Positions 56,601 to 61,974 of a stretch of DNA of 64,000 nucleotides are shown here, piece by piece. The translations under genes and the position numbers were made by a program. The stretch's first letter is position 1, and every line of letters starts with the position of its first letter. The notes under the pieces are model-generated. The model ran no database searches and was not told where the DNA came from. It was given only the letters and a program-made list of their open reading frames with translations. The stretch is from Methanotrichaceae archaeon (GTDB lineage Archaea; Halobacteriota; Methanosarcinia; Methanotrichales; Methanotrichaceae): positions 192,001-256,000 of the forward strand of contig CAVWIG010000017.1 of NCBI GenBank assembly GCA_963754945.1. Direction: 5' to 3'.

Positions 56601-57086
56601 CTATTCAGTCACATACTGGCCGTCGCGCAGCACTATGACGTAATCCGCTGAGTTCCTGAGGGCCACTGAAAAGCCTGGCTCGGCTCCGAAGATTATGGTC
56701 TCCTTGCCGTGCTCCATGGCTTTCATCAGAACAGGTTTTAAGTCAGCGTCTCTGGTGACCATGGCGATGGTATCTATGACTGGATTATAGATCATGTCGA
56801 TGCCCTCGACTGCCATCCTGACGTCAACGTCACTGGTGCATATGACAGGTTCGAACCCCTGGTTCTCCACTGCCTCAACGAGTTTCTCAGATGCGTACTG
56901 GTTCAGGAACACCTTGCCCATCTTGATGTCGCCGTAATCCTTAAGGATGTCCCTAATCTCCTCAAGATCCATCTGGAACTCCTTGCGAAGCATGTTTGGA
57001 CCATCCACTAGAAGACCTATCTTCTTTCTGCCTCTTTCCTTCTTGGAGCCAAGATAATTCATGATGTGTTCGAAGTGTATCGCCAT
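56601..57086 (-). CDS. TIGR00288-family NYN domain protein
   Basis: LLVDGPNMLRKEF, DVDVRMAVE, TRDADL.P and FSVALRNSAD. Confidence 0.9.
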   Translation of the reverse strand: MAIHFEHIMNYLGSKKERGRKKIGLLVDGPNMLRKEFQMDLEEIRDILKDYGDIKMGKVFLNQYASEKLVEAVENQGFEPVICTSDVDVRMAVEGIDMIYNPVIDTIAMVTRDADLKPVLMKAMEHGKETIIFGAEPGFSVALRNSADYVIVLRDGQYVTE

Positions 57087-57198
57087 CAGATCACATAATC
57101 CTTGAGATAACCCCAGACTGTATCATATAAAAATCTATCTCATATATTATTTTATCTATCTTATACTCCGTCTACTCTTGTGTGTCCGTGCTCTCTTG

Positions 57199-57969
57199 TC
57201 ACGGAATTTTGTAGATCTTCTTTATGTTCTTGGTGGTGGCAGAAGCGACCTCAGATGGCGATAGTCCTTTTATCTTGGCGATTAGCCTTACCGATTCGAG
57301 AACATTCATAGGTTCGTTCCTCCCTCGTTTTGGGGCAAGGAAAGGGCTGTCAGTCTCCACGAGAAGGTGATCTAGAGGGACGTTTCTAGCCAGCACTTGA
57401 TGCTGACCGGAGCGGCACACAACTGTTGCTAAAGAGATGTAGAAGCCTCGGTCCACTGCCTGCTTCATTGTATCCATGCTGCCGCCGTAACAGTGAAACA
57501 CGACCTTGTCCAGGTCCTTTACCATATCCAGGGCCTGCTGCTCGGCATCCCTTGAGTGGATAACCAGCGGAAGATCGACGGATTTGGCTAGGTCAATTAC
57601 CTTCTGAAAGACCTGAACCTGATGGTTCCTGGCCGCTTCATCTTTACACCTGTAATGATCCAGGCCCGCCTCCCCTATGCCAACGGCCTGACCGGCATTC
57701 TCTTTGATAAAATCAAGCTGAGATTCCAGGTCCTTGTTGCTTGTCCCTTCCAGGGAGTTGGGTGAAAGCCCAAGAGTCGCCCGCATGAAGTCGTGCTTTT
57801 TCGCCAACTCCAGGCTCTTCCTGTTTGTGGCAATGTCGACGCCGGAGTTGATCATCATCACGACGCCCGCTTCTCGGGCCCTATTCATCACCGCGTCCCT
57901 GTCTTTATCGAAATGCTTGAAATCGAGGTGACAGTGGGAATCTATTACCCCATCTCCGAACTCGTTCAA
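57199..57969 (-). CDS. tatD: TatD-family hydrolase
   Basis: IDSHCHLD, IGEAGLD, IHSRDA, FHC and ETDSPFL; TTG start overlaps the leuA stop. Confidence 0.92.
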   Translation of the reverse strand: MNEFGDGVIDSHCHLDFKHFDKDRDAVMNRAREAGVVMMINSGVDIATNRKSLELAKKHDFMRATLGLSPNSLEGTSNKDLESQLDFIKENAGQAVGIGEAGLDHYRCKDEAARNHQVQVFQKVIDLAKSVDLPLVIHSRDAEQQALDMVKDLDKVVFHCYGGSMDTMKQAVDRGFYISLATVVCRSGQHQVLARNVPLDHLLVETDSPFLAPKRGRNEPMNVLESVRLIAKIKGLSPSEVASATTKNIKKIYKIP

Positions 57970-59526
57970 TTGTGGTTTTCCTCCAAAAGCATCAATCTGT
58001 TTATGGCGCTGACAAGGGCCTCAACCGAGGCCATAACTATGTCCTCGCGTGCCGATCGGGCACTTACTTTCCTTCCGCGGTCGTCCTCGACCCCTATCAC
58101 TACCTCAGCCAGGGCGTCTGAACCTCCGGATATGGCCTCTATCCTGAAATCAGAGAGGCGTATGGACGCGTCGCCGTCCATGAGTCCCTGTACTGCCTTT
58201 AAAGCGGCATCGACAGGTCCAACGCCGATGCTGGCCAGGACCTTCTCGTGACCACGCACTACGGCCTTAACAGTGGCTGTGGGGGTTATAATGTTCCCGG
58301 TCATCACTGAGACCTCTTTGAGCACCATAGCCTGGCTGGCCTTGGCCACCTCTCCAATGACCACGTCGGCTATGGTCTGAAGGTCGGCATCGGTGATCTG
58401 CTTTCCCTTGTCTCCCAGCTCTTTTATCCTATCCAGGATCTCATGGAGCTGCTCATCCGTTGGCCTGTAGCCAGCATCCTCGAGGACCTTCTTAACAGCG
58501 TGCCGGCCTGTGTGCTTTCCAAGGACTATCCTTCTTCTGTGGCCAACCATCTCAGGAGTCATTATGCCCGGCTCAAAGGTCTTGCTGTTTTCGAGGATTC
58601 CGTGGCTATGAATTCCGCTCTCGTGAGAGAAGGCGTTTTCACCGACTATGGGGGCAGTTATTGGTATTTTCGCTCCTGTTAACCGCTCAACAAGCCTTGC
58701 AGTCTCTACCAGGTACTCCGTTTTTATGCTCGTGGTTGCACCGTAAATTGAGTGCAGGCTCATCACAGTCTCTGCCAAATTTGCATTGCCAGCCCGCTCC
58801 CCCAGACCGTTGACGGTAACCTGGATCTCTCTCGCACCGGCCTCCACTGCGGAAAGGCTGTTGGCAACAGCGAGGCCGAAGTCGTTATGGCAGTGGACAT
58901 CCACGACCATGTCAACGTACTCGCAGATCCCCTTCACAAAGGCGTAGAAGGCCGAAGGGACAGCAACTCCCACGGTGTCTGGGATGTTGATGATGTCGCA
59001 GTGGACCTCCTCGACTGCCTTGAAAATTCTGTGGAGGAACTCCGGGGATGTCCTGGTGGCGTCCATGGCAGAGAAGAGGCATGTCCTTCCCTGATCCTTC
59101 ACGTATTCCACTGTCTCAACTGCCCCGGCCACTATCTCGTCGTGGCTCTTCTTTATCGTGTGGGCTATCTGGATGTCTGACGTTGGCACGAAGACGTGGA
59201 CGAGACCAACATCAGCATCGAGACAGGCTTGTGCGTCTGCCTTGACAATTCTGGAAAGTCCGCAGACCTGGGCAGAGAGGCCAGCTCGGGCAATTTGCCG
59301 GACGCTCTCGAACTCGCCCTTGGAAGACACAGGAAAACCAGCCTCGATGATGTTCACACCGAGCTTATCGAGCTGCCTGGCAATAGCAAGTTTCTTTTCA
59401 GGGGTGAGTGAAACACCCGGGGTCTGCTCTCCATCGCGGAGAGTCGTGTCAAAAATTCTAACTCTCTCGCCGCGAAGATCTCTTACATCGTAGAAGACGA
59501 TCCCTCATAGAGGCTTCTTGCGTCAT
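57966..59526 (-). CDS. leuA: 2-isopropylmalate synthase (LeuA/CimA family) needing a +1 frameshift at CTT-CTA near the start
   Basis: [47 protein letters not shown] and C-terminal regulatory domain GVGPVDA. There is no ATG/GTG/TTG between TGA 59507-05 and GTG 59357; ATGs at 59526 and 59508 are one base out of frame. Confidence 0.85.
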
Positions 59527-59549
59527 GTTTCATTGAGTGAGCCTCCGTT

Positions 59550-59557
59550 CTATAAAA
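59550..59557 (-). promoter_or_regulatory. TATA box for leuA, predicting a near-leaderless transcript
   Basis: TTTTATAG lies about 24 nt upstream of ATG 59526. Confidence 0.5.
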
Positions 59558-59652
59558 CTCTTGCCCCGAGGCCGCAATGCTACAAGGAATATTCAGCAAA
59601 GAATTCAGTAATTAATCTGGCGAAAAAAGAATTATGCAGGCGAGATTCACCT

Positions 59653-60432
59653 TCAGGTTGGCGAAGCACCCTGGTCCTTTGATGCCTGTTCCGCCTCGGC
59701 TGCCTTCTCTTCTGATTCCTTCGTCTCCTCAGAGCCCTCTTTGGCCGGAGGGGATATTACCTCGGCGCTGACCTTAGCCTCAGTGTGCTTCTCGATGAAA
59801 TCGACCTCTTTCAAGCTGAGGTGCTGGATGATCATGTCCGCCAGGCCACGCCTGATCATCAGCCACTCTTTGTAGTAACCAAGCTCCCAGGGAACGATGA
59901 TCGTGGCCACATCGTCCTCAATCTTGGATTCCAGGTCCAATCGGGCGAAGGTCTTGATCAGGCTCTTGAGCTTCTCGGCCCGGTCTTCGATGCTCTCAAG
60001 GATCTTGTACTCGTAGACGATGGTCTTGTCTGCCAGGGGGTGGTTGAAGTCAACGATTGCCTTTCTTCCGATAATCCTGGTGACTGTCCCAACCTTGTTC
60101 TCGACACCTACTCTCATCCCGGGCACGGGTTTCTTATCCTTGAATTTGTTGATGGGTATGCTCTCCACTTTCGTGGGATCGTGGGTTCCAAAGGCCTTTT
60201 CAGGCGGGATCTCGACCAACCCTGCGTATCCTATCTCCTTGCCGATTAGGTCTTCCTCCATGCCTGCTACGAGCTGACCAGAACCTACAACGATTAAGTG
60301 GGGGCCGTACTGGCACTCTTCATCGAAGATGCCTTTGGCAGTGGCCACCTCTTTATCGGTAGCTGCTATGACTTGTCCATCAACGCTCTCAGTATAATCG
60401 ATCCTTATAAAATCGCCATTTTTTACAGCCAT
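59653..60432 (-). CDS. slyD: FKBP-type peptidyl-prolyl isomerase (long SlyD type)
   Basis: GDFIRIDYT, IPPEKAFG, VDFNHPLA and acidic tail. ATG 60432. Confidence 0.9.
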   Translation of the reverse strand: MAVKNGDFIRIDYTESVDGQVIAATDKEVATAKGIFDEECQYGPHLIVVGSGQLVAGMEEDLIGKEIGYAGLVEIPPEKAFGTHDPTKVESIPINKFKDKKPVPGMRVGVENKVGTVTRIIGRKAIVDFNHPLADKTIVYEYKILESIEDRAEKLKSLIKTFARLDLESKIEDDVATIIVPWELGYYKEWLMIRRGLADMIIQHLSLKEVDFIEKHTEAKVSAEVISPPAKEGSEETKESEEKAAEAEQASKDQGASPT

Positions 60433-60508
60433 CTTGAAATCCATCCTAGCTTTGTTGCTGTTCACCGGATCTATTTATATGCTTTCTGTCTGCCGTGAGG
60501 CAATTCGC

Positions 60509-60973
60509 CTAGATTAGGTAATCTGCAATCCTCTCAGTGATGGGCTGCTCGCAGTAGACGCACCGCAGCACAACAGGGTTCTTGGTCTTTACGAGCATCC
60601 TGGACTTTATGGGCTCCTCTGTGTTGGATATGCAGCTAGGGTTCTGGCAGCGTATAACGTCTATTATCAGGTCCGGCAGGTCTACTAGGTGCTTCTCGAT
60701 CACCAAAAAGTCGCGAATGATGTTGATAGTGGCATCTGGGGCTATCAGGGCTATCCTGTTTACCTCTTCCTCTTTCAGCTCCCTGTCTTCGACCTTGACT
60801 ATATCCTTCTTGCCCAGCTTGCTGCTCTCAACGTTCATGACCACTGAAACCGTTGCATCGGTTGTTCCGGATATTCCCAGGATCTTCAGGACGTTCAGGG
60901 CCTGGCCTCCGGCTATGTGGTCTATTACAGTGCCGTTTTTAATGGGTTTGACTCTCAGCTCGACTTCGGCCAT
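60509..60973 (-). CDS. pyrI: Aspartate carbamoyltransferase regulatory subunit
   Basis: [31 protein letters not shown] and C.YCE. Confidence 0.95.
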
Positions 60974-60978
60974 TTCGA

Positions 60979-61974
60979 TCACCCTCCTACCCTGTCTTCG
61001 GTGTCAGCTCTGCGACTCTCATTGCTCTCATTGCTCTCATCGCCTATCAGCACTCTATTTCCATCGCCTATCAACATCTTTAGGAGGGCCATCCGCACCG
61101 TGACACCGTAGAAGCTTTGTTTGAAGTACATCGCGTGTTTGGTTGAGTCCACAGATGGCGATATCTCGTCAACTCTGGGCAGTGGATGCATTATGATCAG
61201 ATTTTCCCTCACTCCGGCCAGGTACTCCGGGGTGATCCGGTAGCTTCTGGCTACTTTGTTGTACTCCACAGGATCGGGGAATCTCTCTCTCTGGATTCTG
61301 GTCATGTAGAGGACGTCGACGTTTCGTATGACCTCGCTCAGGTCGCAGGTCTCGCGAACCTTGGTATTTTTGCTGGAAAGGTCTGACTTTATCTGCTCGG
61401 GCATTCGAAGAGTTGGCGGCGAGACCAGGGTTATGTCCGCACCGTAAAGGGATAAGGCATAGGCCAGAGAGTGAACCGTCCGGCCGTACTTGAGGTCGCC
61501 CACCAGGGCAATGCTCAGGTTCTCTAGATGGCTTTCTTTCTTTATTGTGTAGAGGTCCAGGAGAGTTTGGGTTGGGTGGTGGCCCGCTCCGTCTCCTGCG
61601 TTCAGGACGGGCACAGGTGAGAACTCCGAGGCAAGGCGGGCCGAGCCCTCTTTGGGATGGCGGATGACCAAGGCGTCCGCATAGCCGCCTATAACCCGCA
61701 CCGTATCGGCCAGAGACTCACCCTTTGAGATGGAGCTGCCCTCAGCCGGGCCCAGGTTGATCACTCCGCCGCCCAGACGCTTCATAGCCGTCTCAAAGGA
61801 CATGCGCGTGCGGGTGGACGGCTCGAAGAACAGCAAAGCGAGAATCTTTCCGGAGAGCATATCGCTACGCTTGCCGCGGGCATAGGGTTCCAGATCCGAT
61901 GCGAGGTCGAGGACGGAGTCGATCTCCTCCCTGGAGAAGTCCCGCATGGAGAGGACGTGCCTCTTCTTGAACAT
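60979..61974 (-). CDS. pyrB: Aspartate carbamoyltransferase catalytic subunit
   Basis: [38 protein letters not shown] and HPLPR. ATG 61974. Confidence 0.96.

Follow-up and report, generated by a model that had tools for sequence, protein, structure and literature searches.

Bacterial prfB, the gene for release factor 2, is governed by an autoregulatory +1 frameshift at CUU_UGA_C, with a purine-rich tract located 3 nt upstream. To our knowledge, the way in which archaea match amino acid synthesis to supply is largely unknown, and the attenuators and T-boxes of bacteria are lacking. This work concerns the 5' end of a leuA gene, encoding a predicted 2-isopropylmalate synthase (LeuA), in a Methanotrichaceae archaeon (GenBank assembly GCA_963754945.1, contig CAVWIG010000017.1, positions 192,001 to 256,000; this whole stretch of 64,000 nt is referred to here as the window). 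The gene has no start codon ahead of its catalytic motif and is overlapped by a short leader open reading frame (ORF) that carries two adjacent Leu codons. All evidence presented is comparative. From it, there is good reason to believe that LeuA arises through a +1 shift out of the leader, and this shift probably also reports the supply of leucine, i.e., the locus would be a leucine-responsive programmed +1 ribosomal frameshift.

If so, the locus offers a concrete mechanism with defined nucleotides, conserved from Methanothrix to Haloferax and provided with an internal control in the form of an isoleucine paralogue. It would explain why leuA genes have been annotated as truncated, as pseudogenes, or with wrong starts, and RF03001, an orphan Rfam motif, would gain a function. 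Frameshifting at hungry codons, familiar chiefly as an error of translation, would here have been put to use as a sensor. On a practical level, gene callers and metabolic reconstructions mis-annotate the leuA-type genes of methanogens and haloarchaea.

Comparison with described systems

Judged by its sequence, the leuA module would work like prfB but is no member of the prfB type. Both have a short ORF (ORF0 in prfB) that overlaps a long, startless +1 ORF, a CUU codon for the P site, and a purine-rich tract a few bases 5' of it, which in leuA is possibly Shine-Dalgarno-like. As in prfB, the CUU of leuA would slip to UUN, the A-site occupant would be the sensed quantity, and the output would restore the scarce factor. 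Unlike prfB, the leuA module is archaeal and lies 5 to 13 codons from the predicted mRNA 5' end, its tract is spaced as GAGG plus 6 nt, and its A site holds a Leu sense codon (139 of 139 modules), such that charged tRNA would be sensed rather than the gene's own product. In addition, two paralogues carry different sensors. A P-site CUU beside a slow sense codon with limiting aminoacyl-tRNA is also found in yeast Ty1 (CUU_AGG_C) and in hungry-codon shifting, as described in the available part of PMC5009743. However, Ty1 uses a rare tRNA to set a fixed Gag/Pol ratio, and hungry-codon shifting in Escherichia coli is an experimental or error phenomenon, whereas leuA presents a conserved arrangement on biosynthetic genes with cognate codons. 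The leuL attenuators (Rfam RF00512) likewise have a very small leader ORF in which cognate codons gauge the supply of charged tRNA, with starvation raising expression of the pathway. Unlike leuL, the leuA module has no alternative hairpins or terminator, its leader overlaps the gene and stops inside the leuA frame, it has only one or two cognate codons, and its output would be a change of reading frame instead of antitermination.

Within the Archaea, the -1 frameshift of Saccharolobus solfataricus fucA1 was the single programmed frameshift reported by 2021, according to the available part of PMC8211752; like the leuA module it affects a cellular gene, but it shifts in the other direction and has no amino acid sensor. 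Haloferax volcanii leuA2 (HVO_1510) belongs to the same orthologue set as the window gene. Pfeiffer and Dyall-Smith (2021; PMC8305020), in the passages available to us, describe "major problems" in start assignment for this set, some members of which have no possible start, and report HVO_1510 peptides upstream of Met-93, its first canonical start. They speculated (section 3.2(f)) that an out-of-frame ATG and ribosomal slippage are involved, with translation perhaps occurring only when leucine is lacking. The available main text of PMC8305020 contains no slip site, sensor codon, CimA/Ile counterpart, link to RF03001, or methanogen lineages. What is added here is the proposal of a regulatory +1 frameshift in which a sense codon would sense charged tRNA, slippage and leucine dependence as such having already been raised in that paper. 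Our literature search on leuA or citramalate synthase combined with frameshifting in archaea retrieved no published mechanism. The available parts of the frameshift surveys Atkins 2016 and Antonov 2013 do not mention leuA, and the main text of the Methanosarcina mazei Ribo-seq paper mentions neither leuA nor isopropylmalate. A literature search for "leuA-Halobacteria," the name of RF03001, gave no result, and the main text of Weinberg 2017 makes no mention of it.

Anatomy of the leuA locus

The frame that encodes the catalytic DTTLRDGEQ motif lies on the minus strand and extends for 512 codons, from GGG 59504, immediately preceded by TGA, to 57969. Its product is a full-length synthase that contains this motif and scores 713.9 bits against NCBIfam NF002085 (2-isopropylmalate synthase; cutoff, 517), with residues 13 to 507 aligned. 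Ahead of the motif the frame has no ATG, GTG, or TTG; the earliest canonical start, GTG 59357, is situated 3' of the motif and would delete it. The leader ORF beginning at ATG 59526 (Table 1) is in the -1 frame relative to leuA. Its sole Leu codons are the adjacent CTT and CTA, and advancing by one base from CTT gives TTC TAC GAT GTA in the leuA frame. The TATA-like box lies 24 nt 5' of the leader ATG, within a block resembling a transcription factor B recognition element plus TATA box, GGCAARRGTTTTATAG (59550-59568), that is strongly conserved 5' of the leader in Methanotrichaceae (L005-L026). An earlier, sequence-only reading of the window had described the missing starts, the TATA box, the leader and its stop, the exclusive Leu pair, and the move from CTT to TTC, and its coordinates agree with ours throughout.

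Table 1. Coordinates of the features at the leuA 5' end (window positions)
Feature	Position	Strand	Basis
TATA-like box TTTTATAG	59550..59557	-	Sequence; same box and spacing in relatives; promoter function putative
Leader ORF, 22 codons plus TAG 59460-59458	59458..59526	-	ATG-initiated leader in the same frame in 138/139 module-bearing regions
TGA stop, 5' limit of the enzyme frame	59505..59507	-	TGA directly before GGG in 10/29 relatives' loci
Purine-rich tract GAGGGATC (GRGGRAUY in the consensus), possibly Shine-Dalgarno-like	59499..59506	-	Column counts, n = 137
Proposed P-site slip codon CTT, re-pairing on TTC 59495-59493	59494..59496	-	NUU in 139/139 modules
Proposed A-site sensor codon CTA (Leu)	59491..59493	-	Leu codon in 139/139 modules
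leuA coding sequence after the +1 shift, TAC 59492-59490 to last sense codon; stop TGA 57968-57966	57969..59492	-	Frame and profile match

A frame break of this kind could in principle reflect an assembly or sequencing indel, a decayed gene, or a correction at the RNA level (transcriptional slippage or editing), and the source assembly is a metagenome-assembled genome of 54 contigs that is 87.7% complete. Such an explanation is nevertheless extremely unlikely. Contigs from two DNA runs span the site without an indel (59449-59556, with no difference at all, and 59307-59642), and two RNA-library runs give the same result in their contigs (59401-59514 and 59250-59504); the single indel listed in the run contigs is at 59623, away from the junction. 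These independent DNA and RNA-library contigs argue against both an assembly error and a consensus RNA-level correction. Furthermore, the CTTCTA slip site is no homopolymer, the downstream ORF is intact over its 512 codons and scores as a full-length synthase, and the identical frame break occurs in 139 distinct regions, closed genomes among them. The RNA-library contigs end at 59514 and 59504, with adapter-like letters beyond, and RNA cover is absent from 59522 to 59617. We considered these ends as a transcription start and rejected them, as they are loose ends seen in contigs only.

Distribution of the module among leuA orthologues

Orthologue 5' ends were gathered from 40 relatives, 80 named genome records, a 300-genome sample of the phylum, and additional fetched regions. 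Of the 179 loci obtained, L058 (motif not found) and L076 (truncated) were dropped, and the remaining 177 correspond to 165 distinct 140-nt upstream regions. Modules were counted by a regular expression combined with a leader-start rule, which flagged 140 regions; L126 and L134, which have ordinary ATG starts, were then removed, and L136 was added. Since the loci are mutually related and were chosen by similarity, the counts given here and below indicate breadth and not independent events.

The module is present in 139 of the 165 distinct regions, in the order leader ATG, 1 to 13 codons, purine tract GRGGRAUY, 2 nt, NUU, and Leu codon, with the enzyme in the +1 frame. Its carriers belong to at least a dozen families and include Methanotrichaceae, Methanosarcina and other Methanosarcinaceae, Methanoperedens, ANME-2 (Methanocomedens), and Halobacteria; the haloarchaeal leuA orthologues have the form G(G/A)UCGA-GUU-CUU-C. 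Among module-bearing regions, 77 of 138 have no canonical enzyme-frame start. The 26 regions without the module (families f7, f14, f11, f21, f33, and f17, and locus L106) have ordinary in-frame starts 4 to 9 codons 5' of DTT, often with a clear Shine-Dalgarno sequence. The sequence-only reading had proposed just such a comparison of archaeal leuA 5' ends and had named ordinary starts without a Leu pair as the pattern that would speak against it; this pattern is found in those 26 regions and not in most lineages.

In relatives, the leader start is marked either by a TATA box 22 to 24 nt 5' or by a Shine-Dalgarno sequence and ATG. The TATA-to-ATG distance falls within 22 to 24 nt in 49 of 132 module-bearing loci, as measured by a crude script whose hexamer list gave no TATA-like match in 19 of the 132. 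In 49 of the 103 loci with equal spacing, the distance from the leader ATG to the slip codon is exactly 10 codons, or 30 nt, which is close to the footprint of one ribosome. Ribosome queueing was considered as a general feature and rejected, because in other lineages the slip codon follows 4 to 13 codons after the ATG; it may play a role without being general.

Two groups of carriers deserve separate mention. Ten Methanosarcina loci (L027, L108-L112, L130, L131, L169, and L170) keep the module and also have an in-frame ATG 9 codons before DTT, which is probably why public annotations look normal and the leader has been overlooked. In five Halobacteria loci of the leuA2/HVO_1510 type (L178-L182), the invariant 9-mer CCAGGGCAC follows the module. 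A canonical in-frame start is lacking in four of these five, and in L179 there is one 43 codons upstream, beside a TATA box. Finally, the source genome was scanned for other genes with the module (a Shine-Dalgarno-like tract plus NUU plus a long +1 frame), and only leuA and the CimA-type gene were found. Further matches, on C24, C13, and others, were dismissed as coincidences, since either an ATG follows the site immediately or the site is internal to a gene.

Junction codons and reading frame

The slip codon is NUU in all 139 modules (CTT in 72, TTT in 57, GTT in 9, and ATT in 1), and the codon following it in the leader frame encodes Leu in every case (CTA in 67, TTA in 57, CTT in 12, CTC in 2, and CTG in 1). 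The enzyme-frame residue encoded over the same bases is less constant: Y in 124, F in 11, S in 2, C in 1, and L in 1. Family f9 has CUU or CUC as sensor, giving F, S, or L in the enzyme frame; one Methanothrix lineage has CUG, giving C; and leuA of Halobacteria has CUU, giving F. All of these changes are silent in the leader frame and non-silent in the enzyme frame. In 137 of 137, the enzyme-frame codon begins with T, the base needed to form the middle U of a Leu codon, and His, Asn, and Asp, which are common replacements for Tyr, are absent from this position. Where the third base of the sensor is neither A nor G, its first base is C, hence it is never a Phe codon. Synonymous turnover in the leader frame together with a varying enzyme-frame residue points to selection on the leader-frame Leu codon, which in turn implies that ribosomes reach the junction in the leader frame. 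These comparative data support the proposal of the sequence-only reading that a stall on CUA under leucine limitation would de-repress LeuA.

The pattern of variability also changes at this point. In the 103 equal-spacing loci, the sequence 3' of the junction varies with the periodicity of the enzyme frame (1.15, 0.84, and 1.42 bits at codon positions 1, 2, and 3), and the leader codons 5' of it show no periodicity (1.32, 1.31, and 1.24 bits). This switch argues for a change of frame at, or immediately after, NUU. The source genome encodes tRNA-Leu with anticodons GAG, UAG, CAG, and CAA, and CTA accounts for 9.4% of its Leu codons. After slipping from CUU, tRNA-Leu(GAG) would be expected to pair with UUC no less well than it had with CUU. 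CUU or UUU, with good re-pairing, is found in 129 of the 139 modules, and GUU or AUU, with weaker re-pairing, in the other 10.

Purine tract and RNA structure

The tract is nearly invariant. Among 137 modules, position -10 is G in 120 and A in 17, -8 is G in 134, -7 is G in 132, -6 is G in 106 and A in 31, -5 is A in 131 and G in 6, -4 is T in all 137, and -3 is C in 127 and T in 10, with G at -2. It extends 5' past the enzyme-frame stop, contains only purines at -6 even though GGC and GGT make up 53% of Gly codons in the source genome, and never has A at -3 even though ATA makes up 31% of Ile codons; coding in the enzyme frame alone is therefore insufficient to account for it. A constraint on the leader peptide does not account for it either, because the third positions of the leader frame are frozen. 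The 3' end of 16S rRNA in the source genome, ...GGATCACCTCCT, is partly complementary to the tract. In family f8 the tract region reads AGGUGGUC, and true starts in relatives show GAUC plus 2 nt plus ATG. The tract thus resembles a Shine-Dalgarno sequence and may possibly take part in the slip. Its spacing (GAGG plus 6 nt) is that of initiation, and the A at -6 in 31 of 137 modules breaks the GAUC pairing.

No conserved RNA structure was detected in 29 diverse modules, for which the consensus fold has an energy of -0.65 kcal/mol, and a candidate hairpin in the window, AUCGU-CUUCU-ACGAU, was discarded because it is not kept in relatives. A scan of window positions 57000-61000 against Rfam, with E values up to 10, returned only mir-142 and SECIS_4, both at chance level.

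The CimA-type paralogue as an internal control

The source genome contains a paralogue of 503 codons (contig C41, locus L002, minus strand) with a module of its own at L002:2972-3001. Here, a leader of 9 codons (MNAWDRFIR) stands behind the Shine-Dalgarno sequence GGTGAT, the slip codon is TTT (2983-2981), the sensor codon is ATC, encoding Ile (2980-2978), and the enzyme is in the +1 frame. A further ATG of L002 lies in the enzyme frame, 4 nt 3' of the leader ATG, suggesting that this gene may use both a direct and a frameshift route. Across relatives and Halobacteria, a module of the NUU type occurs in 40 of 45 distinct paralogue regions, with an Ile sensor in 40 of 40 (ATT in 26 and ATC in 14), and 11 of the 40 lack an enzyme-frame start. 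Seven further paralogue modules from five more families all have Ile as well, bringing the sum to 47 of 47. Swaps between ATC and ATT are silent in the leader frame and exchange S and F in the enzyme frame. The module is missing from a third paralogue (AksA-like, L003), which begins with an ordinary ATG. In the CimA-type loci of Methanosarcinaceae (L202-L222), the leader start is uncertain: the leader seems to open with GTG, ATG, or CTG right before AGG GAU, after which come two Ile codons (AUU AUU).

The two genes were assigned by sequence grouping, because NF002085 also passes the paralogue and NCBIfam therefore cannot split LeuA from CimA. Database labels differ for the paralogue in Methanothrix, which is called citramalate synthase by JGI and in some NCBI records and isopropylmalate synthase in other NCBI records. 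By BLASTP, the window gene is 49 to 52% identical to haloarchaeal type A and 38 to 39% identical to type B, and the paralogue is 50 to 52% identical to haloarchaeal type B; cross-group identities in these haloarchaeal comparisons are 36 to 43%, and the window gene and its own paralogue share 48%. The haloarchaeal type A gene adjoins a thiamine pyrophosphate-dependent (ilvB-like) enzyme, as does HVO_1510. In the available part of PMC8305020, HVO_1510 is described as nearer to the characterized LeuA of Methanocaldococcus jannaschii and HVO_0644 as nearer to CimA, and a transposon in HVO_0644 is described in the available part of PMC4300041 as causing isoleucine auxotrophy. The grouping places the window gene in the LeuA set and not the CimA set; a CimA enzyme with no response to leucine had been the other outcome that the sequence-only reading held against itself. 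Activity of the window enzyme on 2-oxoisovalerate is a prediction. The putative leucine enzyme thus carries a Leu sensor and the putative isoleucine enzyme an Ile sensor, which fits sensing of each pathway's own amino acid.

Relation to the leuA-Halobacteria motif

Of 151 sampled Halobacteria genomes, 128 contain RF03001, 126 with a score above the cutoff, and the motif is also present in the Haloferax volcanii control. In the cases that could be placed, its position is the 5' end of the type B (CimA-like) gene, and haloarchaeal CimA-type loci score 55 to 76 bits against it. Between window positions 57000 and 61000, it gave no match even with E values up to 10 (gathering score, 47.9 bits). A set of 35 distinct high scorers and 17 low scorers, the latter placed by their cmscan coordinates, was used to define its position. 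The motif falls inside an ATG-initiated leader ORF in 52 of 52 cases, with the leader stop 4 to 9 codons later, and its 3' end coincides with GAA plus an Ile codon in the same 52 (GAA-AUY; ATT in 45 and ATC in 7). The codon after this varies (Leu in 36; Arg, Ala, Pro, Gly, or His in 16), and the synthase is in the +1 frame relative to the leader in all 36 cases in which this could be determined.

RF03001 thus shares with the window module an ATG-initiated leader ORF and a synthase ORF in the +1 frame. It differs in preceding a CimA-type gene and in having GAA as the P codon, an Ile sensor, a 7-bp hairpin, and a GAGGAUAGAGGAAG tract. These sequence features suggest that RF03001 marks an Ile-type switch of the paralogue, in which a P-site GAA would slide onto AAA and which has an added hairpin, and that the "leuA" in its name probably refers to the isoleucine-pathway paralogue. 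The sequence-only reading had supposed that the motif might reflect the same mechanism as the window locus. As regards the leader ORF and the +1 junction with the enzyme, this was correct; the motif, however, precedes the other paralogue, and its codon is Ile rather than Leu.

Proposed mechanism

In the mechanism that we propose, translation would begin at the leader ATG 59526, the mRNA probably being leaderless, and once eleven codons had been read, peptidyl-tRNA would be on CUU in the P site, with CUA in the A site. With ample charged tRNA-Leu, CUA would be decoded and the ribosome would terminate at the leader TAG, yielding no LeuA. With charged tRNA-Leu scarce, the A site would stay empty, and the P-site tRNA could slip to UUC, making UAC the next codon and leading to translation of LeuA with the first eleven leader residues as its N terminus. 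The CimA-type paralogue would use the same device with an Ile codon instead. The anatomy of the junction, its conservation, and the amino acid identity of the sensor codon are observed directly; from these we infer the slip, its site, its efficiency, and its dependence on charged tRNA.

More broadly, we are inclined to view these loci, RF03001 among them, as a class of "frameshift attenuators" in Halobacteriota (Methanosarcinia, Halobacteria, and allied lineages). Each would combine a short leader with a slippery codon for the P site and just one cognate codon for the A site (Leu for LeuA and Ile for CimA), upstream of a target gene without its own start, such that starvation elicits a +1 shift.

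Weighing of alternatives

Several observations weigh against a starvation-dependent shift at NUU. A canonical in-frame start lies between the junction and DTT in 50 of 138 module-bearing loci, and some loci may therefore be able to dispense with the shift. At AUU-A and GUU-C, a slipped tRNA would re-pair poorly. Nor is the sensor rare in every case: AUC, used for CimA, is the commonest Ile codon in the source genome. The variable bases inside the module are third positions of the enzyme frame (G-I-x-F-Y), a pattern compatible also with the enzyme frame being entered ahead of GGG or AUC, and CimA families f19 and f10 have an ordinary ATG start with M-V-A-L-F homologous to G-I-A-L-F. Lastly, the amino acid response is itself something that we infer. 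This last point, the common AUC, and the additional in-frame starts could all be accommodated if the +1 shift were real but constitutive, providing a fixed low output of LeuA or correcting an old disruption of the frame, with Leu and Ile not acting as sensors. We regard this as unlikely, since a purely structural slip site would not need a sensor matched to the pathway, whereas Leu is found in 139 of 139 leuA modules and Ile in 47 of 47 and 52 of 52 paralogue modules, with only synonymous turnover.

The conservation of G-I-x-F-Y with variation at third positions bears more directly on where the enzyme frame is entered. A non-canonical codon within the leuA frame (AUC 59501-59499, with CUG or AUU elsewhere) might serve as the start of LeuA, the leader being a competing or tuning upstream ORF; an in-frame CTG is named as an option for Haloferax in the available part of PMC8305020. 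However, GUC takes the place of AUY in family f8 and in Halobacteria, no Shine-Dalgarno sequence stands at a suitable distance, and the predicted mRNA 5' end is the leader ATG. The restriction to purines at -6 and pyrimidines at -3, despite the abundance of GGC, GGT, and ATA noted above, is not what such a start would require, and the overlapping codon that is always Leu in LeuA and always Ile in CimA would be left unexplained, which together make this possibility quite improbable. Alternatively, the same conservation could result from an earlier slip at NGG_G (AGG 59504-02 to GGG), after which I-V-F-Y would be translated and the Leu codon would matter only to ribosomes that had not shifted. 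NGG_G is present in most Methanosarcinia loci, but it is absent in f8 (GGU GGU) and variable in Halobacteria, where NUU plus Leu is kept. In addition, the A-site codon would be GAU, which has no link to leucine, and selection on the identity of the leader-frame Leu or Ile codon would again go unexplained. We consider an NGG_G slip very improbable and retain the slip at NUU, beside the cognate codon, as the preferred explanation.

Neighbouring gene

At the other end of leuA, the TGA stop and the TTG start of the following ORF (57199-57969; 256 amino acids) share bases as TTGA, an arrangement that suggests translational coupling of the two. The product of this ORF may be a TatD-like hydrolase, as suggested by the first reading of the letters.

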